A stretch of DNA of 44,147 nucleotides from positions 1 through 44,147 of the forward strand of contig JBKBKS010000002.1 in assembly GCA_046294565.1 (NCBI GenBank). Reading direction: 5' to 3'. Made by a program: the position numbers and the translations under genes. A model generated the notes under the pieces. The model did not search any database. It was given only the letters and a program-made list of their open reading frames with translations, and was not told where the DNA came from. Shown in pieces: positions 6,498-42,745 of the stretch; position 1 is the first letter of the stretch; every line of letters begins with the position of its first letter. The DNA comes from Fimbriimonadales bacterium. Lineage in GTDB: Bacteria; Armatimonadota; Fimbriimonadia; Fimbriimonadales; GBS-DC.

Positions 6498-8609
6498 TTA
6501 CGCCGCGCGCGGCAACTCCACAACCTCGCCGTACTCCGGCGTGCTGCCCCCCTCGGCAAGTTTGAACCGCGCAATCTGCTGCATGAGGGTCTCCACATCC
6601 GCGCGCACTTGCTCCATCTGACGGTTCAACTGCTGGATGGCGCTTGTCTGCTCCTGCACCGTGGCGCTGACCTGCTGCGAGCCTGCCGCGACCTGCTGGG
6701 CGATGGACGCCATCTGGTTCAGCGTGCTGGAGGTCGTATCCACGCTTGCGGTCATCTCCTGCGTGCCCGCGCTGGATTGCTGGGCTATCGCCGCAATCTG
6801 TTGCAACGCCGTGGAGGTCGCCTCCGCGCTCGCCAGCATCTCCTCGCTCGCCGCGCTGGACTGTTGGGCTATCGCCGCAATCTGCTCGATCTCGTGCATA
6901 GTGGAGTCCGCCGCGTTCTGCACGGTGTTCATCGACTGCGCCGACTGCTCCACCTGCTGGGTGATGGTCTCCACCGCTTGCAAAATCGCACCCAGCCCGT
7001 TGGCGACCTCTTGCGAGACCTGCGCGCCCGACTGCACCGCGCTGAGGCTCTGCTCCATCGCCTGCACGGTCTGTTCGGTCTTGCCCAGCACTTGTTGGAT
7101 AATGCTCTGGATTTCGCGTGTGGCGACTGCGCTCCGCTCGGCGAGGCGGCGCACCTCTTCCGCGACGACGGCGAACCCGCGCCCTGCCTCGCCCGCGCGC
7201 GCGGCTTCAATCGCGGCGTTGAGCGCAAGCAGGTTCGTCTGACGCGCAATCTCCTCGATGGTCTGCAGGATGCCGCCGATGGAGGCAGACAGGTTGGCGA
7301 GCTCCTGCAGTTCGGCAGCCACATGGCGCGTCTGGCGGTCGATGTCTATCATCACTTGCTGCGACTGCTGCAGCGCGCTGCGCCCCTGCTGAGCGACCTC
7401 GCTGGCTCGGCTCGCCGAGTGCTGCGTCTGTTGCAGTTGTTGGAAAGTCTCACGGATACGCGCCGTGATGGCGTGCATGCGCTCCACGCCTGTGCTGGCG
7501 GCTTGGGCGGTCTGCTCCGCGCCTTGGGCGACCTCGCGCACCACACGAGCGACCTCGCCCATCTGTTGCACGCCGCTCTGGGCGGCTTGGGCGGTCTGAT
7601 CCGCGCCGCGCGCCACCTCCTGCACCACCGCGCGCAGTTGCGCCATCATCTCGTTAGAGCGTTGGGTCTCCTGCGCCATGCGGTTCACGCCGCGCGCCGA
7701 GTCGTCCACCGCGCCGCTGACCTGCTGGGCGCCCGCCGCCATCTGGGCAAGGCTGTGCGTCGCCTCATTCACTTGCTGGCTTACCTGCGCCGCCACGCGC
7801 TGCGCCTGCAGCAACACCCCGCCCAGCGACCGAATCGATTGGTTAATGCTCTGCGCCAGCTGCCCCAGTTCGTCGCGCCCCGCAATCGGCACTTGGGCGG
7901 TCAAATCGCCTTGCGCGAGCTGGCTCGCCGCGCGCTGCACGCTTGCAACCACGCCCAGAATCTGACGCGCTACCAAGAAACTCAGCGCCGCCACCGCCGC
8001 CAACACCCCAAAAAAGACCGCGCCCATCAACAATGTGCGCGAGCGCACCAACGCGGCGGCACGTTGCCCATCCTCTTCTATCTGCTTTTGGATGGCTTGC
8101 TCGCTCTCGACGATAAAGTCGTCGTACTTCTCTATGTAAGCGCGACGCCTATCGCCAAAATTCGAGGCGGTTTTCCAGTCCGACCGCTCCACGGCTGGAA
8201 TAAACTCATCATCCAGCAGTTTGAGGTACGCTAGGGTCTCAGGTTTCTCAAAGGGCATCTCTTGATAGATTTCGGGATGCTTTTTCCAGCGTTCCTGCGC
8301 CTCAGCATATTGTTCACGCGCTTTTTTCAGCGACGCGAGCAGCTGGCGCGCCCGTGAATATTCATTATGGTCGATGGCATAAGAAATACGAAGCGCCCAC
8401 CAGTCTAAGTCGAGAATGCTGGCAGCAGGTGGAGCAATATCTGCCAGCGCGTCTCTGTGGCACTCAATCGTGTTATCTTCCTCGCCTCCAATCTTCACTG
8501 TGTTGAGCGTCGAGTAGGCTGTCGCGCCGAACACCGTCAGTCCGATGACCGCAATACCTGCAATCAGCCCCAACTTCGCCTTTAAGCTGAGGTTGTTGAG
8601 CCAGTTCAT
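6498..8609 (-). CDS. Methyl-accepting chemotaxis protein with an N-terminal two-TM sensor, HAMP and an unusually long signalling hairpin
   Basis: 703 aa. TM '[20 protein letters not shown]', second TM plus HAMP ('[26 protein letters not shown]'), hairpin tip '[42 protein letters not shown]'. SD GGAGG precedes the ATG at 8609. Confidence 0.95.
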
Positions 8610-9953: not shown

Positions 9954-11342
9954 TCAATCCGCGCGGGCTATCGGCTCGAAGTGGCAGCTGAAGTGGCGCA
10001 GGAACGGCGTTTGCCAAGTGATTCGGTAGCCTCCCAACTGCTCGCGGCGACGGTACGCCTCCAGTATCACTTCCACCACATAGTCCACATGGCTTTGCGT
10101 ATAGACGCGGCGGGGGATGGCAAGGCGCACGAGTTCGCGCGGGGCGGGCGTCTCTATACCTGTGTCGGGGGCGCGCGCGGCGAACATCACCGAGCCGATT
10201 TCGCAGCTGCGCACGCCGCCCAAACGATACAACTCCACCGCCAGCGACTGCCCTGGAAACTGCAGCGGCGGGATGTGGGGGAGCATGCGCCCCGCGTCGA
10301 TGTAGATTGCATGTCCGCCCGGCGGCTGCACAATCGGCACGCCCTCGTGGGCGATATGCTCGCCCAAGTAGCGTGTGGAGGCGAGGCGATACTCCAAGTA
10401 ATGCTCATCCAACACCTCGCGTAGCCCCACGGCAACCGCTTCCAAATCGCGCCCTGCCAAGCCGCCGTAGGTGGGGAAACCCTCAGTGAGGATGAGCAAC
10501 TCCTTCTCCTGCTGCGCGAGCTGGTCGTCGTTGGTGCATAAGAAGCCCCCGATATTAGCTAAGCCGTCCTTTTTGGCGGACATCGTGCAGCCGTCGGTGT
10601 AGGAGAAGATTTCGCGGGCAATCTCCAGCGGGGTTTGGTGAGCGTAGCCCGGCTCGCGCAACTTGATGAAGTAGGCGTTCTCGGCGAATCGGCAGGCGTC
10701 GATATAGAAGGGAATGCCATGGCGGCGACATACGGCGCTCACCGCGCGAATATTCTGCATCGAGGCGGGCTGACCACCGCCTGAGTTATTGGTGAGCGTC
10801 ATCATCACCAGAGGAATATTCTGCGCGCCTACCTCTGCAATTAGCCGTTCCAGCCCCTCCACATCCATGTTGCCCTTGAACGGGTGCGGAGCAGCAGTGT
10901 CGGCAAGCTCGGCGCATGGTAGGTCGACCGCGCGTCCGCCGCGATACTCGATATTCGCGCGGGTGGTGTCAAAATGCGTGTTGTTCGGGATAACGCTGCC
11001 AGGTTTGCACAGCAGGGCGAACAGGATGCGCTCCGCCGCGCGACCTTGATGCACAGGAATCACATGTTTGAAGCCGAAGATGTCGCGCACGGTCTCCTCG
11101 AACAGATAGAAGCTGCGGCTCCCTGCATACGACTCGTCGCCGCGCATGACGCCTGCCCACTGCGCACTGCTCATCGCCGATGTGCCCGAATCGGTGAGCA
11201 AGTCAATCATCACATCCTCGGCGGGGATAAGAAAGAGGTTATAGTGTGCGCGTTCCAAGATTGCCTCGCGCTCGGCGAGCGTCGTGAGGCGTATCGGATC
11301 CACTGCCTTGATTTTGAACGGCTCGATGATGGTGCGAAACAT
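9954..11342 (-). CDS. tnaA: Beta-eliminating lyase of the tryptophanase / tyrosine phenol-lyase family (more tryptophanase-like)
   Basis: 462 aa. 'EPFKIKAV', 'DLLTDSGTSAMS..QWAGVMRGDESYAGSRSFY', PLP-lysine region 'DGCTMSAKKDGLANIGGFL', 'FPTYGGLAGRDLEA', 'LPHIPPLQFPGQSLAVELY', 'RLAIPRRVYTQSHVDYV'. Substrate specificity was not resolved. Confidence 0.85.
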   Translation of the reverse strand: MFRTIIEPFKIKAVDPIRLTTLAEREAILERAHYNLFLIPAEDVMIDLLTDSGTSAMSSAQWAGVMRGDESYAGSRSFYLFEETVRDIFGFKHVIPVHQGRAAERILFALLCKPGSVIPNNTHFDTTRANIEYRGGRAVDLPCAELADTAAPHPFKGNMDVEGLERLIAEVGAQNIPLVMMTLTNNSGGGQPASMQNIRAVSAVCRRHGIPFYIDACRFAENAYFIKLREPGYAHQTPLEIAREIFSYTDGCTMSAKKDGLANIGGFLCTNDDQLAQQEKELLILTEGFPTYGGLAGRDLEAVAVGLREVLDEHYLEYRLASTRYLGEHIAHEGVPIVQPPGGHAIYIDAGRMLPHIPPLQFPGQSLAVELYRLGGVRSCEIGSVMFAARAPDTGIETPAPRELVRLAIPRRVYTQSHVDYVVEVILEAYRRREQLGGYRITWQTPFLRHFSCHFEPIARAD

Positions 11343-11435
11343 CCCTCATGTGCAGTGTACCCCAAATGTCATGCAGATTTTACTTGCTGGGGGCGTCGGC
11401 GCGTGTGGAAAGTACCTGCGGGGAGGATGCGACCT

Positions 11436-13193
11436 ATGAATCGAGCGTGGGGATTGTTGTGCGCAACCTTAGGCATATGGGGAGTTAGTGTAGCCGATGT
11501 GCCCAACAGTGCGATGCGTACGCCAAATGGTATGCTGTGGGCTGGCACGACCTTTCAGTTGCAAGCAACGGCAAGCATGGGCAATCAGCTGGCAGCGATT
11601 TCCGACGGGGCGCAAGTGCGCGTGGGTCAGGTGGTGCGCTGGAAGTGGCAGGTGGAGTCGCCTGCGGGGCAGTCCGTAGTGTCGGGCGTCAACTCGGAAG
11701 CCATCTTCCGCGTGCGCGTCATCAACGACGGCAACGGTTGGGACCAGCTGGGTGTGCACTTCGCGGCGTTGGAAACAGTGGAGACGCCTACATGGACAGT
11801 GGAGCTGCGCGAGAGCGCGACCGGCGCTTGGCAAAGCAGCAGCGCGCTGACCAACGGGCTGGGTAGCCCGATTGAGCCAGGCAGCGACATCTTCTACTTG
11901 ATGCGTATGCGTCCGCCGGGAAGCTCCATCCCGACCGACGGCGCATGGGCGCAGATGCGCGCCACGACCAGCGACGCCAGTCTCGATGCTGTTCTGGGCG
12001 AGTTTGTGGCGGGTGTGGTGCGCCCAGCACATGTGCCGACTCGCGCCTGGTGTTGGCGCGAACATACGCAGTTCGTTGCGCCGATACTTTATGATGGGCG
12101 TCTCATCTGGATGGGAACCGACCCAAACACAAATAACACCGTTGTCTTCCACACGCGCGACGCGCTCCACGCGACGACAGGTGGTACCTTAGGCAACGAG
12201 CGGCTGACGGGGCGCATATTGCGCGGCTTCCGCCCCACAGGCTTCAGCGTCGCGCTAGGGAATAACTGGTTCGTGGGGAGTGGGAACCAGCTTGTGCGTC
12301 TGGATATCGCCGAAGCGCTGAACGCCACGGCGACAACGCCGGTGGTGTTCCCTGTGGAGTTTCCGTCGGGCGTCGCGCCGCGCTTGGATGTTGAGCCTGT
12401 GGTGTTCAATCGGCGTCTGTATGTGGCAGGCAACGACGGCAGGCTTTATGCGTTCCGTGAAGACGGGCAACGGTTGGGTAATAGCGCTGCGATACCTGCC
12501 CGCTATGGCGCCATCAGCACTAACATCGCGCTGATAGGACGCCTGTTCTATGTGGGCACCCAAGAGGGCTGGCTGGTGCGGATAGACGCACTGACAGGTA
12601 GCTTGCGCACGGCGCGACGACTTGCTACGCAGCCCCTTCATAGCCTCGCGCCGACCGCTCTGGGACGCGCCCTCGTCGTGCGTGCGGGCAATCGTACCGT
12701 GCTGGGCGTCAATCCCAATCAGATGAGCGTGCTATGGCGACGCACAATCAACGAGGATATCGTCTCGCCTGTGAGCGCATCACCCCATCAGGAAGTCGCC
12801 GCGTTCCTGACACAATCAGGTGTGCTACACGCGATACATACGCGCATGGGCGTCAGTCTGGGGCACTATCCGCAAAGCATCTTTGGCAATCAGGCAGTGG
12901 TTCGCCGCGCGACTATCGGCTTCGCTCGTCGGGAAGACCGCAAGACAACCTATGTCTATGTGTTGGCGCAGCGCGAAACAGGCGACGAGAACCTGCACCA
13001 AGGATTGTTCCGCGCTGTGACGCTGGAGAACCCCTATAACCGTCTGGAGTTCGGCGAGTCGACGCTCCATCTCGGCTCGGAGTATCTGCCCGTGATGGGG
13101 TTCACAGGCAACTCCGTTAGAGATTATTGCCTGATAGCCTCGCGTCGCGCCGATACGAATGGGGGCACAGTTGCGGCGATTCCGCTGCGATAG
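11436..13193 (+). CDS. Secreted protein with an N-terminal Ig/CARDB-like region and a PQQ-like beta-propeller region
   Basis: Track ORF 10974..13193 overlaps tnaA antisense. The real start is probably the ATG at 11436, which follows GGGAGG (11421..11426). Signal peptide 'MNRAWGLLCATLGIWGVSVADV'. Propeller-type blades 'LYVAGNDGRLYAFREDGQRL' and 'LFYVGTQEGWLVRIDALTGSL'. Confidence 0.7.
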   Translation: MNRAWGLLCATLGIWGVSVADVPNSAMRTPNGMLWAGTTFQLQATASMGNQLAAISDGAQVRVGQVVRWKWQVESPAGQSVVSGVNSEAIFRVRVINDGNGWDQLGVHFAALETVETPTWTVELRESATGAWQSSSALTNGLGSPIEPGSDIFYLMRMRPPGSSIPTDGAWAQMRATTSDASLDAVLGEFVAGVVRPAHVPTRAWCWREHTQFVAPILYDGRLIWMGTDPNTNNTVVFHTRDALHATTGGTLGNERLTGRILRGFRPTGFSVALGNNWFVGSGNQLVRLDIAEALNATATTPVVFPVEFPSGVAPRLDVEPVVFNRRLYVAGNDGRLYAFREDGQRLGNSAAIPARYGAISTNIALIGRLFYVGTQEGWLVRIDALTGSLRTARRLATQPLHSLAPTALGRALVVRAGNRTVLGVNPNQMSVLWRRTINEDIVSPVSASPHQEVAAFLTQSGVLHAIHTRMGVSLGHYPQSIFGNQAVVRRATIGFARREDRKTTYVYVLAQRETGDENLHQGLFRAVTLENPYNRLEFGESTLHLGSEYLPVMGFTGNSVRDYCLIASRRADTNGGTVAAIPLR

Positions 13194-16262: not shown

Positions 16263-17251
16263 CAGTTCACCTGTGCTTCGTACAGCACGCGGGCTTGATC
16301 GTCGGGCAGGTCGCGATTGCGCTTATGGAGCACGCGCACGGTCGCTGCGGTCGCGCCGTCGGGGATAGGCGCGCGGATGACCCTGCGCTCGCCCGGTTTG
16401 AGGCGCGTATCGTTGCCGTCGATGGCGCCGTTATCCGCCAGCAGCGTCTGGTGCTTGCCCACCTCCGCCTCGCCTTGCCAGAAGCGCGCCTCCACTATCA
16501 CGACCACATATTCGGGACCTGTGGGCACGGTATGCCCGACCTCGACGCTCTCCAGTTTGATTTGGAGGTAGTCGTTGCGTCGCTCGTGCGCCATCTTGAC
16601 GCCTTTTTGGAACATGGCGGGCGTCGCGCCCTCGAACTTGTGGATGCGCGCTTTGCGGGGGGGCAAACCGTCGCCTGTGGCAATCGGTCGCTCCACCATG
16701 GGCATGTGGCAGTTCACGCAGCCGTTGGGGTCGTTGCCCCACTCGCTCTGCTTGTACCAATCCACCGTGCCGAAGATTTCGTGGCAAGTGGCGCACATGT
16801 CGACGGTTCCGAACTTCTCGTTTTTCACGGTGGCGTGCGCGTCGGTTTTTGTGCCCAGCGCGCCGTGATAGGCGCCGTTGGCGTCTTGGTGGCAGCTGAT
16901 GCAGTCGATGGCGTGGGCGCGGTCGGCGTCGCGCAGGTTCGGATGCTCGCCGAAGCCTTTCGCCAGAATCGGTTCGGGCGCGTGGCAGGGCAAACACATC
17001 TTCAGCGTGCGGTTGCGCGAGGTCTGGGCGAAGGTCTCGCTCTCCCACGCGGCGGCGTGGCGCGATTCTGCCCAATCCCTTGCCTCGTTGGGGTGGCAGG
17101 TTTGGCAGTCGCCGCGTGTTCGGGGCAGCGCGGCGCTCGGTTGCGCGGGCTGATCTTGCACCGTGCGCGCCGCGCCCGCCAACATCAGCGTCAGCGCTGT
17201 CAGGGAAACACTCCATCCGACGAAACTCTGCATAGCGTCGGATAGATTCAT
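16259..17251 (-). CDS. Secreted pentaheme c-type cytochrome with a non-heme C-terminal domain
   Basis: 330 aa. N-terminal hydrophobic signal. Five CxxCH motifs (CQTCH, CLPCH, CISCH, CATCH, CVNCH), all in the first ~190 residues. The remaining ~130 aa have no heme motif. Confidence 0.85.
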   Translation of the reverse strand: MNLSDAMQSFVGWSVSLTALTLMLAGAARTVQDQPAQPSAALPRTRGDCQTCHPNEARDWAESRHAAAWESETFAQTSRNRTLKMCLPCHAPEPILAKGFGEHPNLRDADRAHAIDCISCHQDANGAYHGALGTKTDAHATVKNEKFGTVDMCATCHEIFGTVDWYKQSEWGNDPNGCVNCHMPMVERPIATGDGLPPRKARIHKFEGATPAMFQKGVKMAHERRNDYLQIKLESVEVGHTVPTGPEYVVVIVEARFWQGEAEVGKHQTLLADNGAIDGNDTRLKPGERRVIRAPIPDGATAATVRVLHKRNRDLPDDQARVLYEAQVNW

Positions 17252-17372
17252 CGGATGAGGCGCGACTCCTGCTGGTACTTGTGGAGTGGGGTCAGGCGCC
17301 GGCTCGTCGGTCGGCAGCGTGGGCTATGAGCGCGGGACGCGGTTGCGCCCCGCGTGTCCCCTGAAGAGGCGT

Positions 17373-17840
17373 CTACTTGCTGCGTTCACATAGCCCCACA
17401 TTGATTTCCAAGTCGCCCATCTCGGTCTGTAGCGGCACCACCAGAGTCGGTATCTCCAGCGTGCTGATGCGCACATTCGTGCCGCGGATGAGGCTGGGCG
17501 GCGAGAGGTTGCACTGGATGCCCAGCGACGCGAGCTCGGTCAGCGCCGCGCCCGAAATCATATTGCCCAACTCGGCAATCGCGCTGGCGGCTAACTCGTC
17601 GAAGGTGCGAATCGTCGTGCCCAGCATCTTGGAGGCGATTTTATCCGCCGTGAAGACCGACATGCCGATGATAATCTGCCCCTCCAGTTGACCTGTGACG
17701 CCCAGCACGATATTGCACTGTTGTGAGGTGAAGATGCCTTTGCGCGCGCTGAGTTGCCCCTTCTGTGGCGTGACGCCCAGCATCATCTGGAAGACATTGA
17801 ACGCCGCGCTGATGAACGGATTGATGTATTCTGCCTTCAC
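17373..17840 (-). CDS. cheX: CheX-type CheY-P phosphatase
   Basis: Track ORF 17373..18458 runs through cheY in another frame. The credible gene starts at the GTG at 17840, after AGGAGGGGGG, and gives 155 aa: 'VKAEYINPFISAAFNVFQMMLG...AIAELGNMISGAA...'. Confidence 0.8.
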   Translation of the reverse strand: MKAEYINPFISAAFNVFQMMLGVTPQKGQLSARKGIFTSQQCNIVLGVTGQLEGQIIIGMSVFTADKIASKMLGTTIRTFDELAASAIAELGNMISGAALTELASLGIQCNLSPPSLIRGTNVRISTLEIPTLVVPLQTEMGDLEINVGLCERSK

Positions 17841-17854
17841 GCTTGTCCCCCCTC

Positions 17855-18214
17855 CTAAGCCGCTTTCTGCACGGCTTCCATGATTCGTTCGGGCTGGAAC
17901 GGCTTCACGATGAAGTCCTTTGCGCCCGCCTGTATCGCCTCCACGACGATTTGCTTTTGTCCCATCGCGGTACACATCACCACTTTGGCGTTGGGGTCTT
18001 TGGCGCGGATGGCTTTGAGCGCCTCCAGCCCGTCCATTTCGGGCATGGTGATGTCCATGAACACCAGGTCGGGTTTGTGTTGCTCGTAGAGTTCGACGGC
18101 TTCGCGCCCGTTGGACGCTTCGGCGACCACTTCGAGTCCGTTTTGCGTCAGGATGTTTTTGAGCGTCACGCGCATAAACAGCGCGTCGTCTGTAATCATG
18201 ATGCGTTTCGCCAT
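17855..18214 (-). CDS. cheY: Chemotaxis response regulator CheY
   Basis: 119 aa single REC domain. 'IMITDDALFMR', phospho-acceptor 'VFMDITMPEMDG', 'VVMCTAMG', 'DFIVKPF'. Confidence 0.95.
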   Translation of the reverse strand: MAKRIMITDDALFMRVTLKNILTQNGLEVVAEASNGREAVELYEQHKPDLVFMDITMPEMDGLEALKAIRAKDPNAKVVMCTAMGQKQIVVEAIQAGAKDFIVKPFQPERIMEAVQKAA

Positions 18215-19059
18215 CGTTGAACCTCCTGTTGTGGTTTCTGATAGAAGAACGCGCTGGGGTTCTCGAACCCAATCTGCGCGTAGTTGAAGATGCGCTCCGT
18301 GTTGCCCAAGAACAGATAGCCGCCTGGGCGGAGCGACTGGTGGAACTCTCGGAAGATGCGCTCCTTCGCCTCGTCCGAGAAATAGATGACGACATTCCTG
18401 CAGGCGATGAGGTCGAACCCTTTGGGATACGGGTCGGCGAGCAGGTTGTGTCGTTCAAACTTCAGGTAGCGTTTGAGCGCAGGGTCTGCCTCGTACTGGG
18501 TGCGCCCGTTCTCTTGGAAGGCGCGGAAGTATTTCTGTTTGTATTCGGCGGGCGCGCTGCGCAGGTCGCTCTCGGCGAAGACGCCGCGCCGCGCACGCTC
18601 CAGCACCTCTTGGTCGATATCTGTGCCCAGTATCTGGTGCGAGCGGTTCGGCGCCAGCTCATGCAGCAATATTGCCAAACTATACGCTTCCGCGCCGTAG
18701 GAGCTGCCCGCGCTCCAGAGCTTCAACTGCATGCTCCCTCTGAGCAGCTCAGGCAGCACCTGTTTTCGTAGGATTTCGTACTGCTCAGGGTTGCGGAACA
18801 GCTCGGATACATTAATAGCGAGTCGGTCGATGAAGCCGCGTAGGCGCGTCTCGTCCGCCGCCAAGTGCGCGAAGTAGTCGGTGAACTTCCGATAGCCTGC
18901 ACGCTCCATCATCGTGTAGATGCGCCGATAGGTCTGCTCGAACTTGTATTGGTCAAGGTCGAGCCCTGCGCGTTTTTTGAGCAGCTGTTTGAACTGCTCG
19001 AAGTCGCGCAGCAGTTCGGGCGTTTTGGGAATGTTCAGGCTGCCTGGGATTTGTTGCAT
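18196..19059 (-). CDS. cheR: Chemotaxis protein methyltransferase CheR
   Basis: The start was moved to the ATG at 19059 ('MQQIPGSLN...', SD GAGGGGGTGA). 'INVSELFRNPEQY', SAM motif 'LKLWSAGSSYGAEAYSLA', 'FDLIACRNVVIYF'. It overlaps cheB by 25 nt and cheY by 19 nt. Confidence 0.9.
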   Translation of the reverse strand: MQQIPGSLNIPKTPELLRDFEQFKQLLKKRAGLDLDQYKFEQTYRRIYTMMERAGYRKFTDYFAHLAADETRLRGFIDRLAINVSELFRNPEQYEILRKQVLPELLRGSMQLKLWSAGSSYGAEAYSLAILLHELAPNRSHQILGTDIDQEVLERARRGVFAESDLRSAPAEYKQKYFRAFQENGRTQYEADPALKRYLKFERHNLLADPYPKGFDLIACRNVVIYFSDEAKERIFREFHQSLRPGGYLFLGNTERIFNYAQIGFENPSAFFYQKPQQEVQRWRNAS

Positions 19060-20102
19060 AGTTCTTTCACCCCCTCGGTGATGGCTTCTGCGATTTGGTG
19101 GAGCGGCGCGACGCGCTTGACGCAGCCGGTCTGGATTGCGGCGCGCGGCATGCCGAACACGACGCATGTGCTTTCATCTTCGGCGATGGTGTACGCGCCT
19201 TTGGCGTGCAGCGTGCGCAATCCCGCCGCGCCGTCGCTGCCCATGCCTGTCAGGATGGCGACCGCGATTGCGCCTTGATAGTTCTGGGCGAGCGAGAGCA
19301 GGGCGACATCGACCGCTGGGCGCACCCCATGCACAGGCGGGTCTTGGGTCAGCGTGAGCTTGCCGCCGCGCTCCACTTTGAGGTGTTTGCCGCCCTGCGC
19401 CAAGTAGGCGACGCCGGGTTGCAGCACTTCGCCGCCCTGCACCTCGCGCACCGTGAACGCGCTGCTGCGGTCTAACCGCTCCGCCAACGAGCGTGTGAAC
19501 CCCTCTGGCATGTGTTGGATGAGCAACACTTTCGCATGTAATCCGGGCGGTAGGTTGCTCATCACCACATTCAGGGCGCGCGGACCGCCTGTGGAGGAGC
19601 CGATGACGACCAGCGGCGCATCGTGGGAGGGTCGCCCCACGAGCGGGCTGGGCTTCAGCGGCGCAGACGCGGGGCTGACCGCCGCCGGCGTAGCCGAAAG
19701 ACGCGCCTTGGCGACCGCCTTCACCTTCTCGATAATCTGCGACGAGATTTTGTAGATGTCCAGCGAGATGGAGCCAGACGGCTTCGCCACGAAGTCCACC
19801 GCGCCCAAATCCAGACACTTCAGCGTGACCTCTGCGCCCTCCGTGGTGAGGCTGCTGAGCATCAGCACAGGCGTCGGCTGCTCCCGCATCAGCTGCTGAA
19901 GCATCGCAACGCCGTCCATCACAGGCATCTCCACATCGAGGGTAATCACATCGGGCTTGAGCTGACGCGCCATAGTGAGTCCCTCTTGCCCATTACGCGC
20001 TGCGCCCACCACTTCAATCGCGGCGTCTTGATTCAGCAGGTCGCTGATCATCCGCCGCATAAACATCGAGTCGTCCACCACCAACACTCGGATCTTACTC
20101 AT
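19035..20102 (-). CDS. cheB: Chemotaxis response regulator protein-glutamate methylesterase CheB
   Basis: 355 aa. REC domain ('IRVLVVDDSMFMRR', 'VITLDVEMPVMDG') plus an esterase domain ('VVIGSSTGGPRAL', 'LLIQHMPEGFT', 'ILTGMGSDGA'). Confidence 0.95.
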   Translation of the reverse strand: MSKIRVLVVDDSMFMRRMISDLLNQDAAIEVVGAARNGQEGLTMARQLKPDVITLDVEMPVMDGVAMLQQLMREQPTPVLMLSSLTTEGAEVTLKCLDLGAVDFVAKPSGSISLDIYKISSQIIEKVKAVAKARLSATPAAVSPASAPLKPSPLVGRPSHDAPLVVIGSSTGGPRALNVVMSNLPPGLHAKVLLIQHMPEGFTRSLAERLDRSSAFTVREVQGGEVLQPGVAYLAQGGKHLKVERGGKLTLTQDPPVHGVRPAVDVALLSLAQNYQGAIAVAILTGMGSDGAAGLRTLHAKGAYTIAEDESTCVVFGMPRAAIQTGCVKRVAPLHQIAEAITEGVKELCNKSQAA

Positions 20103-20115
20103 GGCGTTTCCTCCC

Positions 20116-20640
20116 TTAGGCGGCTCTGCGCAAGATGCCCAGCGCCGCCGCTAAATCGCGTTCAATCGCCGCTGCGCCAACCGCGCGCACTCGTATCCAG
20201 CCCGTGGCGACATCGAACTCAAACGAGCATCCTGTCGCGCCGCGCGTATGTTCGAACGCGATGCCGATATGTAGCTCGCGCAGCAGCCGATGGAGTGTTT
20301 CCACATTGCGTTCGCCGATTCGCAGGGCTTGGCTGCGATTCTGAAACAGTTCGCCGCCGCCGATAAGCACTGCGCGTAGGCGCGAGGCGTTGGCAGGCGA
20401 GGCGTCCAGCAAGCGCAGCAGCGTCGGCACCGCCGTGGTCGCGTACTTGCCAGGCAAGCGCATCGCGTCTTGCTCGTGCGCTTCAGGCAGCATCACATGG
20501 GCCAGCGCCGCCGCGTGCGTGCGCGGGTCAAATAGCAACGTGCCCACGCAGGAACCCAAGCCGATACAGCCAATCGTCCCTGCGCCGCGCGCCTGCACAA
20601 TCTCGCCCATGCCTGCTAACTGCAACTCCGCCCGCGTCAT
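20116..20640 (-). CDS. cheD: Chemoreceptor glutamine deamidase CheD
   Basis: 174 aa. 'IGCIGLGSCVGTLLFDPRTHAAALAHVMLP', 'PGKYATTAVPTLL', 'AVLIGGGELF..IGERN'. Confidence 0.9.
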   Translation of the reverse strand: MTRAELQLAGMGEIVQARGAGTIGCIGLGSCVGTLLFDPRTHAAALAHVMLPEAHEQDAMRLPGKYATTAVPTLLRLLDASPANASRLRAVLIGGGELFQNRSQALRIGERNVETLHRLLRELHIGIAFEHTRGATGCSFEFDVATGWIRVRAVGAAAIERDLAAALGILRRAA

Positions 20641-20651
20641 CCTCTGCTCCT

Positions 20652-21257
20652 TCAGATGCCCAACACGCTAAACAACTTCTCCAGATTGCCCGTCTCGGGC
20701 AGGTACAAAAAGTAGCCCTTGAACTGATGTTCAGGGGTCTTGAACGCCGTCTCGATGGCTAACAGTTCGCGATTCCCGTACATGGCTTCCACCATGATGG
20801 AGCTCAAGACGGCTTGCGCCATGTCGGCGGCGAAGGCGGGCGGCTCCATCTGTAGGGTGAAGCCCGTCATCTGGCTAATCGCCTGCAGATAGTTGCCCAG
20901 CATGATGTTGCTGACCTCGTTGATGACCGACCGATAGAGCTCGTTGAGTTCCGCCAGCTCGCTGGGCTGCATCTGGATGAGCATCTGCCACAGCACGCAC
21001 GCGCTCTCCCAAGGGAATAAGAACGCGCCTTCGCCGGGCCACTCGCCGTTCACGCGCGAGACTGTGCCCACCACCAACGATTCAGGCGTCTCGCAGAGTT
21101 CGGGCAAGGTCGCCGTGTCGGTGCGGTGGACTTGCGGCGCTTCCAAAGTGAACAACACGCCCGTCAGGTCGGAGAGCGCGGTCACCGCGCCGCCTAACCC
21201 GATGTTGCCTATCTCGCGCAGGGCGTCCGTGCGCAAATCGCTCAGTGAAGTCATCAT
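20652..21257 (-). CDS. cheC: CheC-family CheY-P phosphatase
   Basis: The start was moved from track 21461 to the ATG at 21257 (AGGTGG 5 nt upstream). 'LSDLRTDALREIGNIGLGGAVTALSDL' plus the second half-repeat 'LYRSVINEVSNIMLGNYLQAISQMTG' matches the duplicated CheC motif (E-x2-N). Confidence 0.8.
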   Translation of the reverse strand: MMTSLSDLRTDALREIGNIGLGGAVTALSDLTGVLFTLEAPQVHRTDTATLPELCETPESLVVGTVSRVNGEWPGEGAFLFPWESACVLWQMLIQMQPSELAELNELYRSVINEVSNIMLGNYLQAISQMTGFTLQMEPPAFAADMAQAVLSSIMVEAMYGNRELLAIETAFKTPEHQFKGYFLYLPETGNLEKLFSVLGI

Positions 21258-21514
21258 CGTAGCCACCTGCCTACCTATTCTTGCCATATTTAGCCCCACG
21301 AGGTTATTGTAAGGATACGAGGTTTTACACCGAACGCCCCATAAGCGGCTCCATGGAAACTTCGATACGCCTGTGCGGGGTCTCTCTAAGCGGAGCAGCC
21401 AGGTATCGAGCGTCGCGAGGTACACTTTATCGGGGCGTTCAGCGATGTTTTCCTGTCGCAAGCCCCCACAAAGAGAGCAAAACTCTCACGCGCGGTTCCT
21501 TCGAGGCTTAGGCG

Positions 21515-33174: not shown

Positions 33175-34650
33175 ATGATAGGGCGTCGTGTATTCGGCAT
33201 CGAGACTGAGTTCGGGTGCTTCGTGCGGGACGAGCGCGTGGGTACCTCCGAGACTGTCGTGGAAGCGGTCAAGAACTATGTGTTCAGCAAGGCGCGGCTG
33301 GGACTGATTGACCTGACGGCGCGCGATGAGGCGTTCGAACCCGCGCGCAGCGGCGGCTTCCTTGTCAACGGCGGACGCCTCTATATCGACGCCGTCGGCA
33401 GCCACTTGGAGTACGCCACGCCCGAATGCGCCAGCCTGTTCGATATCGTGGCGCACGAGAAGGCAGGGCAGCGCATCGTCTATAACACGCTCAAACAGAT
33501 GCACTGGGACGAGCGCGTGAGCTTCCACAATAATAATGTCGACCACTTCGCCGGGCACACTTTCGGTTGCCACGAGAACTACTTGGTGCGCACGGACGAC
33601 CGCCTGCCCAGCGATTGGCACAAGCTGGTGCTGCCGTTTCTGACCACGCGCCAAATCTTCGCGGGGGCAGGGCGCGTCGGCGGACATCGCCTCGAACACG
33701 CCGGGTTCCGACCCTCGCTCTCCGAAGTCGCCGACCACCCTATCGATTTCATCTGGGTCTCGAATGTCTATAATGTGGAGCCTGACCCGACTGTGCAGTA
33801 TCAACTTTCGCAACGCGCCGACCACATCGTGCGCGAGAACGCCTCGCGCGTGCGCTTCAACCGCGCGATTATCAATCCGAAGTGGGACAGCGTGTACGGC
33901 TACCAGAACTATCAACGGCTGCACCTGCTGTTCGGCGAGGGCAACATGAGCGAGTACGCCGCCGCGCTGAAAATCGGGACCACCTGCTTGGTGTTAGACC
34001 TTGCCGAAGCGCGCGCCATCCCCAACTGGCTGCGCCTGCAGGACGCCCTACACACCCTCAAGAGCATCTCACGCGACGCCACCCGCAAATGGATTGTCAC
34101 ACTGCTCGATGGCAGCACCATCTCCGCCATCGACCTGCAACGCGCCTACCTGCAACTCGCCCAGAAACGCTTCGCCGGGCGCGACCCCGAAACCGACTGG
34201 GTGCTACACGAGTGGCAGTATGTGCTGGACACCTTAGAGACCGACCCTGAGAAGTTGGAAGACCGCCTCGACTGGTTGATTAAGCTGCGTATCCTGCGCG
34301 AGTATATGGAAGATACGGGCGCACAGTGGGGCGACGAGGCGCTCCACTCCATCGACTTGGAGTATCACAATATCAACCCTGAGCAGGGCCTCTACTACGC
34401 GCTGCAGCAGATGGGCGAGGTGGCGCGCGTCATCGACGATGTGCAGATTGAGGCAGGCGTGACCACGCCGCCCGCCGACACCCGCGCCCACGCGCGCGGC
34501 TATGTCATCAAGAAGCTCGCCGAGCGACGCTACAACCGCTACTACATCGACTGGGACATCGTGTATGTAGACCGCAATCGTCAGGTGGACATGCGCGACC
34601 CGTTCAACACCTACACGCGCGAGGCGGAGCGGTTCGTGATGATGTTGTAG
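33175..34650 (+). CDS. Pup-ligase/deamidase family protein (PafA/Dop homologue, carboxylate-amine ligase fold)
   Basis: 491 aa. 'RRVFGIETEFG', 'NGGRLYIDAVGSHLEYATPEC', 'GCHENYLV', 'LPFLTTRQIFAGAGRVG', 'QLSQRADHI', 'RLHLLFGEGNMSEYAAALKIGTTCLVLDL', 'PPADTRAHARG'. These are the conserved blocks of actinobacterial PafA/Dop. Confidence 0.85.
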   Translation: MIGRRVFGIETEFGCFVRDERVGTSETVVEAVKNYVFSKARLGLIDLTARDEAFEPARSGGFLVNGGRLYIDAVGSHLEYATPECASLFDIVAHEKAGQRIVYNTLKQMHWDERVSFHNNNVDHFAGHTFGCHENYLVRTDDRLPSDWHKLVLPFLTTRQIFAGAGRVGGHRLEHAGFRPSLSEVADHPIDFIWVSNVYNVEPDPTVQYQLSQRADHIVRENASRVRFNRAIINPKWDSVYGYQNYQRLHLLFGEGNMSEYAAALKIGTTCLVLDLAEARAIPNWLRLQDALHTLKSISRDATRKWIVTLLDGSTISAIDLQRAYLQLAQKRFAGRDPETDWVLHEWQYVLDTLETDPEKLEDRLDWLIKLRILREYMEDTGAQWGDEALHSIDLEYHNINPEQGLYYALQQMGEVARVIDDVQIEAGVTTPPADTRAHARGYVIKKLAERRYNRYYIDWDIVYVDRNRQVDMRDPFNTYTREAERFVMML

Positions 34651-39570: not shown

Positions 39571-40305
39571 ATGCACGCGCATATCGGCGACTGGCGGTTA
39601 TTCAATCAGACGGCGCGTTGGGGGTTGACCCTCAGCGACGCGCAGACGCAGCGGCTCATCGAATATCTGGAACGCCTGTATGAGGTCAACCAGCAGATGA
39701 ACCTGACGCGCGTGCCGCCTGAGCAGGCAGTGGGTCGCCATGTGCTGGATTCGCTCTGCCTGCTCGGCGTCTACCCCATCCCCGAAGGCGCGCGCGTGTT
39801 GGACATCGGCTCCGGCGCAGGACTGCCGGGGATTCCGCTCGCGATAGCCCGCCCTGACTTGCAGTTAACTTTGCTGGATTCTCACGGCAAAACGATACAG
39901 TTTTTGAAAGAAACTTGCACTCTGTTGGGGTTAGGCGCGCAATCGGTACAGGTTCGCGCGGAGGATTGGGCGCACGCTCCTGAGGCTCGTGAACGGTACG
40001 ATTGCGTTGTGGCGCGCGCGGTCGCCAAGATGCCCGTGCTAACGGAGCTGATGACGCCGTTTCTGAAAATAGGCGGCGTCGGGCTTGCGCTCAAGAGCAT
40101 TCACGAACTCGAGGCGATTGAAGCTTCGCACAGAGCGGCGCAGACGCTCGGCGCAACGCTGGAAGTGCGAACCGTAGAGTTCGAGATGGAGACGGGCACG
40201 GTGCAACGCGCCATCGCCATCCTGCGCAAGCAGCGGTCGACGCCTGCACCGTACCCACGCGCGTGGGCGCAGATGCTCAAACGCCCCTTGGGAGGCAAGG
40301 CGTGA
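39571..40305 (+). CDS. rsmG: 16S rRNA (guanine527-N7)-methyltransferase RsmG (GidB)
   Basis: The start was moved to the ATG at 39571, because the track's 5' part is antisense to the HDOD gene. 'MNLTRV..EQAVGRHVLDSL', SAM motif 'VLDIGSGAGLPGIPLAI', 'LLDSHGKTIQFL', 'VVARAVAKM'. Confidence 0.9.
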   Translation: MHAHIGDWRLFNQTARWGLTLSDAQTQRLIEYLERLYEVNQQMNLTRVPPEQAVGRHVLDSLCLLGVYPIPEGARVLDIGSGAGLPGIPLAIARPDLQLTLLDSHGKTIQFLKETCTLLGLGAQSVQVRAEDWAHAPEARERYDCVVARAVAKMPVLTELMTPFLKIGGVGLALKSIHELEAIEASHRAAQTLGATLEVRTVEFEMETGTVQRAIAILRKQRSTPAPYPRAWAQMLKRPLGGKA

Positions 40306-41423
40306 ATATCGGCGTCGACGCGCGCTTGCTCACAGGCGCATATACAGGCGACCGCACCTACTGGCGCGGACTGCTGAAGCAGTTCGCCGAGTTGCTGAAC
40401 CCTACCGAGTACCGTCTGACGCTGTTCGCCACGCGCCCCATGCCCAGCGACGCGCTACCCGAATCGTCGCTGTATGCGTTCGTGGTCGCCCCCGCCCGCA
40501 ACGAGCGCCTCTGGAGCCTGTTCCAACTGCCCAAACTTGCCCAAGCGTACGCTTGCGACTTCATCCACACGCAATACACGGTGTCCCCGTTCTTCAAAAT
40601 CCCCGCCGTGACCACCGTGCATGACATCTCGTTCCTGATTGGACCGCAGTGGTTCCCTTTGAAAGATAGGATTTTGCTCAGGCTCACGGTTCCTGCGTCG
40701 TGTCGTCGGGCGCGGCGCGTATTGACCGTTTCGGAGACCTCGCGCGAGGATATGATTCGCGTGCTTCGCCTGCCCCCTGAGAAGATTATCGCGACTCCGA
40801 ACGGCTTGCCCGAGGGGTTCCACCCGATTCCCCGTGCGCAGGCGCAGGCGTGGGCGCGTGCGCATTACGGGCTTGAGCCGCCCTTCGCGTTGGCGGTCGG
40901 CGTGTTGCAACCGCGCAAGAACTGGGAACTCGCGCTGCTGGCAGTGCAGATGGCGCGTTCGCAGTACGAACTGCCGATACGGCTCGCGCTCACAGGCAAG
41001 TCGGGCTGGGCAAGACGTTCTCTCCAACGCGCCAAACGCGACCTGAACGCTCACGAGTGGCTAATCGAGACGGGTTATGTGCCCGACGAGCATCTCGTGT
41101 GGCTCTATAACGCCGCTGATGTGTTTTTGTATCCCTCATTTTACGAGGGGTTCGGTCTGCCTCCCTTAGAGGCGATGGCGTGCGGAACGCCAGTGATTGC
41201 CTCCAACGGCGGCGCACTGCCCGAAGTGGTCGGCTCAGGGGGCGTCCTGCTCCCGCCCGATGAACCGGGCTTGTGGGCGAACGCTATTCGGAGCATCCTC
41301 GTCTACGACGATTTCCGCGCGAGCCTCTGCGCGAAGGCGCGTCAGCAGGCAACGCGCTTCTCGTGGCGCAACACCGCCGAGCGCACTCTCCAAGCGTATC
41401 AGCAAGCCCTGCAGCACGACTGA
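40302..41423 (+). CDS. GT4-family (GT-B fold) glycosyltransferase
   Basis: The GTG at 40302 follows GGAGG (40291..40295) and overlaps the rsmG stop (GTGA). '[35 protein letters not shown]' is the E-x7-E retaining-GT signature. Confidence 0.9.
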
Positions 41424-41426
41424 GAG

Positions 41427-41752
41427 TTTTCCACATCGATTGTGGAAAACTCTGTGGAAAACCCTGTGGAAAACGCCGCAACGCCGAGTTTTCCACAGAG
41501 TTTTCCACATGGTTTCCACAGTTTTCCACAGAGTTTTCCACATCGAACCCCCCCATTCTTAGCGTAGCTAATTAACTTGTGGGTTAGTAGACAAAAGTTT
41601 CAATTTGAGTTCAAAATTAGGGCTTCAGAGGGGCAAATTTTGTCGACCGCGCGGTCGAAGTAGACAAAGTTTTCCACATTTCCACATTGACCTATTAATA
41701 CCATGGATTCCTTAAATGCATGGAGATTCGAAATTCGATCGCGTGTGGAAAA
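41427..41752. other. Candidate chromosomal replication origin (oriC): 12 DnaA boxes flanking an AT-rich tract
   Basis: TTTTCCACA on the + strand at 41427, 41489, 41501, 41512 (gTTTCCACA), 41522, 41534, 41670 and 41678 (aTTTCCACA). TGTGGAAAA at 41441, 41453, 41465 and 41744. Hand count gives ~39% GC over 41561..41740. rsmG lies 1.1 kb upstream. Confidence 0.75.
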
Positions 41753-41965
41753 CTTTTACGCGCGTGCATTCTCACAAGGGGGCCGTGGACATCTATCAAG
41801 AGGTGCTATGTAGATTACGCGTCAAAACTGCAACTCTGCATCAGCGGTTGTCAAGAGGAGTTCGGGTTCGCGCGGCGCGTTGGCGCGTGATGATGCGAAC
41901 CAGTGCCAGGCGCGTACCCGCCGCTCAGTGGTAGCCTTAACAGCCTTTCTCGCTTAGCAATAGCC

Positions 41966-41994
41966 TGTCATGCCTCGTTTCGCTCGGCATGACA
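41966..41994. repeat. Single self-complementary family-1 repeat unit
   Basis: 'tgtcatgcctcgtttcgctcggcatgaca', with a 9-bp perfect stem tgtcatgcc/ggcatgaca, followed by 'aattttt'. Confidence 0.7.
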
Positions 41995-42224
41995 AATTTT
42001 TGGTGTGGACAGGCGTCAAGTCAGGCAATGCGCCTGTTCAATATACTGTGTACGGCGGCAACGCGAACGGCTGGCTTTGGACACGGACAGGCACGATTGC
42101 TTCCGGTGCAGGTCAGTGGTTCCGCGTATCTATCGAAATGCCGTACCGTACCGAGTGTTTGCGGATTGCGGTTTCAGGTGCGCCACAGCTGCTTCGAAGC
42201 AAGATTGTAGGGGTAAAGGGATGA
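41970..42224 (+). CDS. Small hypothetical protein, paralogue 1 of an unrecognised ~75-aa domain family
   Basis: 84-aa ORF 'LVWTGVKSGNAPVQYTVYGG...GQWFRVSIEMPYRTECLRIAVSGAPQLLRSKIVGVKG', similar to the next two genes. Its stop overlaps the next ATG (ATGA at 42221). The first 9 codons lie inside a repeat unit, so the true start may be the TTG at 42000 or the GTG at 42003. Confidence 0.55.
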   Translation: MPRFARHDKFLVWTGVKSGNAPVQYTVYGGNANGWLWTRTGTIASGAGQWFRVSIEMPYRTECLRIAVSGAPQLLRSKIVGVKG

Positions 42225-42745
42225 ATGATAGACATGACCCGATACGCATTACACGGCGTGAGTTGCTCAAGTGTGTACTGACCCTGCCCTTGAGTGTTGC
42301 GTGCGTAGGGTTGACGCCGCCGCGTGCACACGCCCAGCAGGATGGATTTGCTCCGCCTGAGTGGGAGTGGCTGTTATTGTGGGAAGGGCGTGCGCTTATC
42401 GGGCAACGCGCGTCCGAGTGGCGCGACATCACAGGCAATAACGCGAACGCCTTCGCCACATTACAACACGCCCTCCACTACTCGCAGCTGGTCTGGATGG
42501 GCTACACGATGCGAGGAGGGTATCTGGAATATCGTGTGCTGGCGCGCTCTGTCGGGTTCGAAGGCGTGCCATTGGGTGTCGGATGGTTTCAGGTCGCTCG
42601 GGGCACTCTTACTGCGCCAGCGCAACGCTGGTTTCGCGTTGCGTTCGACGCAGCGCACTGGGACGAGTATCGGGTCGAAGTGCGCAGCCGCTCCCCTCAG
42701 GTGCTGCATAGCCGCCTCTTAGGACGGCGCAACTATATGCCGTAG
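42221..42745 (+). CDS. Tat-signal-like secreted hypothetical protein, paralogue 2 (N-terminal extension plus the same C-terminal domain)
   Basis: The start is the ATG at 42221 within track ORF 42005..42745. 'RITRRELLKCVLTLPLSVACVGLTPPRAHAQQ' resembles a twin-arginine signal. The C-terminal domain is 'LVWMGYTMRGGYLEYRVLARSVGFEGVPLGVGWFQVARGTLTAPAQRWFRVAFDAAHWDEYRVEVRSRSPQVLHSRLLG'. Confidence 0.65.
   Translation: MNDRHDPIRITRRELLKCVLTLPLSVACVGLTPPRAHAQQDGFAPPEWEWLLLWEGRALIGQRASEWRDITGNNANAFATLQHALHYSQLVWMGYTMRGGYLEYRVLARSVGFEGVPLGVGWFQVARGTLTAPAQRWFRVAFDAAHWDEYRVEVRSRSPQVLHSRLLGRRNYMP

Follow-up and report, generated by a model that had tools for sequence, protein, structure and literature searches.

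A likely chromosomal replication origin beside rsmG in an uncultured Fimbriimonadales bacterium

Introduction

Where does chromosome replication start in a bacterium in which a dense cluster of DnaA boxes lies with neither dnaA nor dnaN beside it? This question is raised by a 44,147-bp stretch of DNA (referred to here as the window), which is an entire contig (JBKBKS010000002.1) of a Fimbriimonadales (Armatimonadota) metagenome-assembled genome (MAG). The element in question, at positions 41427-41752, directly follows rsmG (gidB) and a gene for a GT4-family glycosyltransferase (GT), and it had been proposed as a candidate chromosomal origin (oriC) in a reading made from the letters of the window only (the sequence-only reading). 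That proposal is supported by the present analysis. The non-coding element is conserved across its clade with substitutions typical of DnaA boxes, possesses a canonical unwinding module, and is located at a synteny breakpoint with a weak but consistent change in GC skew. It is considered very likely to be the chromosomal oriC of this uncultured bacterium. The only genome paper for the class is that of Fimbriimonas ginsengisoli, in which dnaA, dnaN, recF and gyrB are scattered and oriC was not identified, only TTATCCACA having been searched for (PMC4072686).

The DnaA-box cluster

The 9-mer TTTTCCACA has 10 exact matches in the window, all of which lie within the 326 bp from 41427 to 41752 (41427+, 41441-, 41453-, 41465-, 41489+, 41501+, 41522+, 41534+, 41670+ and 41744-). 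The number expected by chance in the whole window is 0.10, and none of 100 shuffled sequences reached 10 copies. Twelve boxes had been counted previously; all twelve positions were found in the cluster, though two of them are occupied by boxes with one mismatch, namely GTTTCCACA at 41512 and ATTTCCACA at 41678. The remaining one-mismatch matches in the window, also 10 in number, are all isolated and scattered outside the cluster, and a de novo search for clustered 8-mers identified no second cluster of comparable kind in the contig. Several boxes of the TTWTNCACA type at a density far above chance, a first hallmark of an oriC, are therefore present at 41427-41752.

The layout given in the sequence-only reading was reproduced in its details. 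The first box starts 3 nt after the GT stop codon (TGA at 41421-41423), exact 12-bp steps separate the starts of the three reverse boxes, the five forward ones start at intervals of 12, 11, 10 and 12 bp, and the cluster closes with the boxes at 41670 and 41678 and the reverse box at 41744. Together, the opposed reverse and forward arrays resemble a DnaA-oligomerisation region and may form one. A run of seven cytosines (41548-41554) is followed by DNA with a GC content of 38.9% over 41554-41733, in agreement with the ~39% counted by hand earlier, compared to 62.3% for the window. Nearest-neighbour calculation places duplex-stability minima at 41568-41620 and 41670-41720, so that AT-rich, easily melted DNA of the kind expected of a DNA-unwinding element adjoins the boxes. 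A 13-nt inverted repeat (41666-41678 and 41744-41756) brackets the putative unwinding region.

The putative unwinding module

The basal unwinding system (BUS) of bacterial origins consists of one or two DnaA boxes, a spacer of at most 16 bp (mode 13), at least three DnaA-trios of the form 3'-NAN-5', with GAT preferred next to the box, and then an AT-rich region (Pelliciari et al., 2021, PMC8287927). The supplement of that paper prints the modules 3' to 5', the box strand thus reading 5'-box-box-spacer-(NTN)n, and the orientation and format of the trios described here follow it. Read in this manner, the window has the order TTTTCCACA|TTTCCACA TTGAC CTA TTA ATA. The boxes of the pair at 41670-41686 have no more than two mismatches and are oriented 5'-TTWTCCACA-3' towards the trios, the distance from the upstream box to the first trio is 13 bp (41679-41691), which is within the 16-bp limit, and three consecutive 3'-NAN-5' trios follow with GAT nearest the box. 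The ~43 bp past the trios are AT-rich yet poorly conserved, as expected of a melting region. Unwinding would probably start to the right of the 41670/41678 pair, at the trios of 41692-41700, and not necessarily inside the AT-rich tract of 41555-41660. A second trio set after the five-box array (from 41555 onward) was also considered and was rejected, there being no more than two consecutive NTN triplets in any frame.

Genome contigs were scanned with the 20-mer box pair AAGTTWTCCACAWTTCCACA, which turned out to be a general pattern, the matches listed being mostly from Clostridia and Acidobacteriota. Among these listed matches, 44 of 120 hits from other phyla have the pair in one 8-kb block with dnaA or dnaN, and several such loci have trios at the same offset after the pair, examples being those of Thermosynechococcus (L020; GCCC CTACTACTACTA) and a member of the Sphaerochaetaceae (L033). 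By this linkage, the scan showed the box pair to be a hallmark of origins in other phyla. It is worth mentioning that the dnaA/dnaN-linked loci of Acidobacteriota/Pyrinomonadaceae (L009, L034, L046, L051, L082 and L084) possess AAGTTWTCCACAWTTCCACA twice as an inverted repeat, with starts 40 bp apart. This gives a symmetrical origin core, unlike the single pair of the Fimbriimonadales element.

Conservation of the element and its synteny breakpoint

The loci compared were those of the GT and RsmG orthologs, with the addition from the box-pair scan of Fimbriimonadales bacterium KatS3mg016 (L095), the single Fimbriimonadales locus among the matches listed. The closest GT and RsmG homologs have identities of up to 94% and 90%, and the named ones come from Fimbriimonadales or Armatimonadota MAGs. 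The rsmG orthologs of the relatives are in all cases followed by the GT gene. The same element is found directly after rsmG-GT in seven further genomes (L002, L005, L006, L095, L128, L129 and L130), which together with the window make up the 8-genome alignment. A metagenome scan with the invariant non-box motif GTAGACAAA-N8-TTTGAGTTCAAAAT identified 19 contigs with 7-11 boxes each; rsmG and/or GT lies to the left in all 17 of those retaining a left flank, and no difference in the left junction is seen among the genomes and contigs in which it is preserved.

In the alignment, invariance extends over the box arrays, the box pair and the terminal box as well as over long stretches outside the boxes. 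Mean pairwise identity is 80% for the 317-bp element, while that of the adjacent GT gene is 74% over all sites and 48% at four-fold degenerate sites; constraint on the element is thus stronger than on the protein-coding gene beside it. Substitutions within the boxes are nearly all of TTTT, TTAT or TTGT before CCACA. Such variation is the classical wobble of DnaA boxes. As for the trios, five of the eight genomes in the alignment have the consensus CTACTACTA (GAT GAT GAT on the bottom strand), as do 13 of the 17 metagenome copies that could be read; the variant CTAATAATA is found in L002 and two metagenome contigs, and the variant CTACTACCA, with two intact trios only, in L149.

In one genome (L002; GCA_026003115.1, contig BPGQ01000011.1), the box cluster is separated from the GT stop codon by ~550 bp of extra DNA, beyond which the element is intact. 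This insertion includes ~320 bp (11190-11510) of tandem palindromic repeats resembling repetitive extragenic palindromes, with units similar to GCTTGGACAAAACTGTCCAAGCCACA and GTAGCAGGGACAGTCCTGTCCCTGCA. The 226-aa gene called across it has no Pfam match and is probably spurious.

The element sits at a synteny breakpoint, with its left flank fixed and its right flank variable. To its right are an unknown protein with a twin-arginine translocation signal in the window, DinB/HgmA in L002, pabB (minus strand) in L005, carB (plus strand) in L006 and L130, and rplL-rplJ (minus strand) in L128 and L129. As these genes differ between genomes, there is no conserved downstream gene for which the element could be the operator. 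Many bacteria use DnaA as a transcription factor as well, and the element does have one sigma-70-like match on invariant bases (TAGACA, 18 nt, CAAAAT; 41588-41617). However, the count of promoter-like matches is not above that of shuffled sequence, the gene on the left stops at the element, and those on the right, on either strand, are different in nearly every genome, which leaves no conserved target gene. A small RNA finds no better backing, with no Rfam match to known RNA families at the gathering score and with sub-threshold models of eukaryotic microRNAs and small nucleolar RNAs falling on the inverted repeats of the boxes; no tRNA gene was found in the window either. It is therefore highly unlikely that the element is a DnaA-controlled promoter or operator of a neighbouring gene, or a small RNA.

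The rearranged right flank, seen in every genome, could also suggest the origin of an integrated plasmid, chromid or other secondary replicon, or the remnant of a mobile element, and plasmid origins can contain DnaA boxes (PMC6323995). An origin of this sort is nevertheless very improbable, as no rep, integrase or transposase gene lies beside the element in any relative, the left junction is the same wherever it is retained, and the flanks consist of housekeeping genes (rsmG, rplJL, carB, grpE, dnaK/dnaJ and parAB). One copy of the element lies ~133 kb into a 990-kb contig, Ga0599199_00015 of sample 3300066321.

Genes that commonly mark origins are represented by rsmG, two genes away, and by parA-parB, located 8-9 kb to the left of the element in L130 and L006; dnaA, dnaN and gidA do not occur in the stretches read around the element. 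Searches by tblastn with DnaA and DnaN identified neither gene in the 44-kb window, in line with the earlier claim, and the six relatives read over 10 kb to each side (L002, L005, L006 and L128-L130) have neither gene in that range. No gidA was found in the contig or within 10 kb in the same six relatives. The 2.4 kb of downstream DNA on which that claim was partly based ends with the contig; since the window is the whole contig, this limit is an assembly edge and not a fact of the genome.

GC skew and the weight of the evidence

In the 12 relatives with both flanks available, GC skew is negative to the left of the element and non-negative to the right in every case (positive in 11 and 0.000 in L095), and the change of sign spans at least four different right-flank gene sets. 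Skew is taken here as supportive but weak, given the small values and the inconsistent flanks of the window, and this fits the 'jagged' skew reported for F. ginsengisoli (PMC4072686).

Several observations weigh against an origin at this location. The skew values (0.01-0.07) are near the noise of 10-kb windows within the contig, the 2.4-kb right flank of the window itself has negative skew (-0.09), and negative values are not found throughout its 41-kb left arm. There is no clear divergence of gene orientation at the element, rsmG and GT pointing towards it and the picture in the relatives being mixed. Two lineages (L005 and L142) do not have a set of three canonical trios, and the least stable duplex is found in the conserved module (41568-41620) rather than past the trios. 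More distant relatives (L003/L004 and L007, with GT proteins 66-69% identical) keep rsmG-GT with no box cluster there. Finally, the sequence in view comprises one 44-kb contig and stretches of up to 21 kb from relatives, and does not take in the dnaA locus.

The last of these points, together with the weakness of the skew, bears on a further explanation, namely that the element is a DnaA-titration or recharging locus, in the manner of datA and DARS in E. coli and of the B. subtilis DnaA-box clusters, and that replication really starts at another site, perhaps close to dnaA. In model bacteria, the existence of dense box clusters other than oriC is well established. Titration sites, though, are not known to combine a box pair and 13-bp spacer with trios of the GAT type and AT-rich DNA, all of which the element carries. 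A titration locus should be a cluster that lacks an unwinding module and is located away from a skew switch; here, the unwinding layout is present, the synteny breakpoint coincides with a change of skew sign in 12 of 12 relatives, rsmG lies beside the element and parAB is near it in relatives, and the whole 317 bp, including the sequence outside the boxes, is more conserved than the adjoining protein gene. An origin is favoured over a titration site because the layout of box pair, spacer, trios and AT-rich tract is present, and the titration explanation is considered unlikely.

If the element is the chromosomal oriC, and presumably the only origin of the chromosome, initiation could proceed as follows. 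DnaA-ATP would fill the two arrays of high-affinity boxes (three in reverse, five in forward orientation), which are opposed and helically phased, and a second DnaA assembly would nucleate on the tandem boxes at 41670-41686. The latter would extend onto the three bottom-strand trios (41692-41700), starting 13 bp past the upstream box, and the adjacent AT-rich tract (41701-41743), bounded by the inverted box at 41744, would melt. The replicative helicase would be loaded last, at the opened AT-rich tract.

The conserved non-box module and a possible relocation of the origin

Conservation within the element is highest not in the DnaA boxes but in the module at 41555-41669, which contains no boxes. 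It possesses three copies of the motif GTMGACAAA(A)KTT, one of them inverted, and three short dyads. The direct repeat and the 16-bp palindrome pointed out in the sequence-only reading belong to it; the former, GTAGACAAA(A)GTT, starts at 41587 and 41660 (41586 and 41659 with a leading A), and the latter was confirmed at its position. Invariant across the eight genomes are GTAGACAAA-N8-TTTGAGTTCAAAAT and GACCG-N-G-N-GGTCGAAGTAGACAAAG. This sequence conservation is too high for the module to be a mere AT-rich spacer, and its most likely role is to bind an origin protein of an accessory or regulatory kind. The duplex with the lowest stability in the element (41568-41620) also lies inside the module, which could for that reason melt easily as well and may be a second easily melted zone.

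In the more distant relatives that lack the element, no boxes were found within 10 kb on either side of rsmG-GT (L003/L004 and L007), and a de novo search of L003 and L007 gave no variant clustered 8-mers. The origin of the L003 and L007 lineages must therefore lie elsewhere. In L007 (GCA_037444405.1; GT at 17151-18239), dnaN is located 6 kb downstream of GT; in front of it are an 81-aa ORF (open reading frame) and a phosphoenolpyruvate carboxykinase gene instead of dnaA, and there are no boxes upstream of it. Chthonomonas calidirosea and a 5.07-Mb Armatimonadota-like contig have GT homologs with neither linkage to rsmG nor boxes. F. ginsengisoli was sought for comparison with its published skew origin at 5.13 Mb and was not among the best 120 RsmG homologs. 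Since boxes are missing at the loci of more distant relatives, the rsmG-GT-element arrangement is clade-specific. The distribution of the boxes suggests that the origin may have moved within the order, possibly recently, as close outgroups keep rsmG-GT without any boxes.

A more far-reaching possibility, put forward tentatively, is that of a composite origin. In such a case a protein so far undescribed and specific to the lineage, for instance a regulator, a second initiator or an adaptor for helicase loading, would bind the origin by docking on the module at 41555-41669, and the rsmG-GT-oriC cassette would mark a recent relocation of the origin within the Fimbriimonadales.

Comparison with known origins

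The oriC of E. coli lies at gidA-mioC, away from dnaA, and gidB (rsmG) is next to gidA. The Fimbriimonadales element is similarly separated from dnaA with rsmG close by, and its two opposed arrays of closely phased boxes are like the left and right halves of the DnaA-oligomerisation region of E. coli. It differs in having no adjoining mnmG/gidA or mioC, no GATC cluster and no 13-mer L/M/R repeats, and in that its unwinding side is set by trios. In DoriC, the TTTTCCACA origin of Synechococcus lividus PCC 6715 is recorded far from dnaA and dnaN (PMC6323995). Since origins away from dnaA/dnaN are already known from E. coli and S. lividus PCC 6715, the context of the element is not exceptional. 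The description of it as unusual was overstated, the more so with the scattered genes of F. ginsengisoli as a further precedent.

In its boxes and trios, the element is most like the cyanobacterial origins. The box TTTTCCACA is that recorded for cyanobacteria (Synechococcus elongatus and Cyanothece) in DoriC 10 (PMC6323995). The module of S. elongatus reads TTTTCCACA TTTTCCACA GCCC CTACTACTACTG (PMC8287927 supplement), and the box-box-spacer-CTACTACTA layout of the Fimbriimonadales is almost identical to it and to that of Thermosynechococcus L020. Cyanobacterial origins are, however, usually beside dnaN, whereas the present element follows rsmG-GT4 in the phylum Armatimonadota, and its relatives interchange TTTT and TTAT boxes freely. 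It matches a cyanobacterial-type oriC in box type but not in adjacency to dnaN, a gene missing from the window and from the 10-kb flanks of six relatives.

Similarities to the BUS of B. subtilis incC (Richardson et al., 2016; Pelliciari et al., 2021, PMC8287927) include the tandem box pair, the 13-bp gap, at least three central-A trios of which the first is 3'-GAT-5', and AT-rich DNA beyond, with GAT-GAT-GAT in relatives. The window, in contrast, has the minimal three trios and a second box that overlaps the first by one base. The element also differs in possessing a conserved 115-bp module between the main arrays and the unwinding boxes and in not being located between dnaA and dnaN.

The oriCI of Deinococcus radiodurans has 13 boxes of the form T(A/G)TA(T)TCCACA, irregularly distributed and next to dnaA/dnaN, and Deinococcus DnaA binds TTTTCCACA in vitro (PMC7988490). 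Both loci have 12-13 boxes in 300-500 bp, a mixture of TTATCCACA and TTTTCCACA (across relatives in the present case) and a GC content of ~40-46% in a GC-rich genome. The boxes of the present element, in contrast, are in regular 10-12-bp arrays, and dnaA is not nearby. With datA, DARS and the DnaA-box clusters of B. subtilis, the element shares dense consensus boxes and an intergenic location away from dnaA. It differs from these in its trios, AT-rich unwinding tract, opposed phased arrays, clade-wide conservation over 317 bp, skew change and synteny break.

Features of the element and its genomic neighbourhood

The features of the element and its neighbouring genes are collected in Table 1.

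Table 1. Features of the candidate origin and its flanks (positions in the window; a point indicates no strand)
Feature	Position	Strand	Remarks
rsmG (gidB), 16S rRNA m7G527 methyltransferase	39571..40305	+	Pfam GidB, E = 1.6e-41; left neighbour, two genes from element
GT4-family glycosyltransferase, 373 aa	40302..41423	+	Pfam Glycos_transf_1 and Glyco_transf_4; invariant left border of element
Outlying DnaA box TTTTCCACA	41427..41435	+	Position varies in relatives, some with extra reverse boxes here
Array of three DnaA boxes, top strand TGTGGAAAA	41441..41473	-	12-bp phasing; shared by the 8 aligned genomes, with A/T wobble at the third box position
15-bp GC-rich spacer separating the opposed arrays	41474..41488	.	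CGCC core conserved
Array of five DnaA boxes (41489, 41501, 41512 = GTTTCCACA, 41522, 41534)	41489..41542	+	Kept in 8 genomes with TTTT/TTAT/TTGT variants
TCGAA (invariant) and C7 run (41548-41554)	41543..41554	.	GC-rich in relatives as well
AT-rich module without boxes, highly conserved	41555..41669	.	115 bp; invariant columns in 8-genome alignment
Dyad TTAGC-N3-GCTAA	41559-41571	.	In module 41555-41669
GTAGACAAAAGTT	41587-41599	.	First GTMGACAAA-type copy in module
Dyad TTTGA-GT-TCAAA	41604-41615	.	In module 41555-41669
AAATTTTGTCGAC	41635-41647	.	Inverted third repeat copy, from repeat search
Perfect 16-bp palindrome TCGACCGCGCGGTCGA	41643-41658	.	In module 41555-41669
GTAGACAAAG	41660-41669	.	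Second direct copy of repeat
Tandem DnaA boxes TTTTCCACA and ATTTCCACA, one base shared	41670..41686	+	TTWTCCACAWTTCCACA invariant in 8 genomes
Spacer TTGAC	41687..41691	.	Puts first trio 13 bp past upstream box end
Three DnaA-trios, top CTA TTA ATA, bottom 3'-GAT AAT TAT-5'	41692..41700	-	Proposed single-stranded DNA site of DnaA filament
AT-rich tract, 43% GC	41701..41743	.	Sequence poorly conserved; candidate DNA-unwinding element past trios
Terminal inverted DnaA box	41744..41752	-	GCGTGTGGAAAACT invariant in all relatives; pairs with AAAGTTTTCCACA at 41666-41678 as 13-nt inverted repeat
174-aa ORF	42221-42745		Twin-arginine-type signal (RRELLK); no Pfam match
ORF of 360+ aa	43068-44147		Runs off contig end; no Pfam match

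The gene order to the left of the element is HDOD (minus strand), rsmG (plus) and GT4 (plus); rsmG, named earlier as an origin-proximal gene, was verified by its Pfam domain. To the right there are ~460 bp of unremarkable non-coding DNA and then two ORFs. A look-up of the 174-aa protein returned just one 921-bp contig. The right flank of the window has an unusually negative GC skew (-0.2 over 43-44 kb), and none of the relatives examined has a syntenic counterpart of it in its own right flank; recent acquisition or inversion of a segment beside the origin may account for this. Between the element and the first downstream gene, at 41967-41999, there is an 8-bp GC-rich hairpin (GTCATGCC, an 11-nt loop and GGCATGAC, then AAATTTTT). 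It looks like a terminator, with a loop too long for the rule of the terminator scan, and, as the relatives have other right flanks, conservation of the hairpin at this place is not possible.

Elsewhere, the contig has ordinary chromosomal genes, including alaS and genes for chemotaxis proteins, acyl-CoA dehydrogenases, SpoVR, a Pup-ligase homolog and a photolyase. The Pup-ligase family protein (PafA/Dop-like; 33175-34650) of this Armatimonadota genome is full-length (Pfam Pup_ligase, E = 5e-126). Pupylation is best known from Actinobacteria and Nitrospirae. A chemotaxis cluster on the minus strand (17373-21461) encodes CheC/CheX-like proteins, a CheB methylesterase and another CheC/CheX, and a gene for a methyl-accepting chemotaxis protein is located at 6498-8609; the relative L007 has flagellar genes near rsmG.

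Significance

The general picture of bacterial origins is unchanged by this element, which would be an ordinary origin that happens not to adjoin the initiator gene. It adds an Armatimonadota example to the known box-trio unwinding modules, and its conserved non-box module provides a defined bait for origin-associated proteins. For hot-spring Fimbriimonadales, the element can anchor the orientation of contigs in MAGs as well as estimates of growth rate based on read depth (peak-to-trough ratio). A concrete and testable candidate for the origin of replication thereby becomes available for one clade of a phylum that has received little study.

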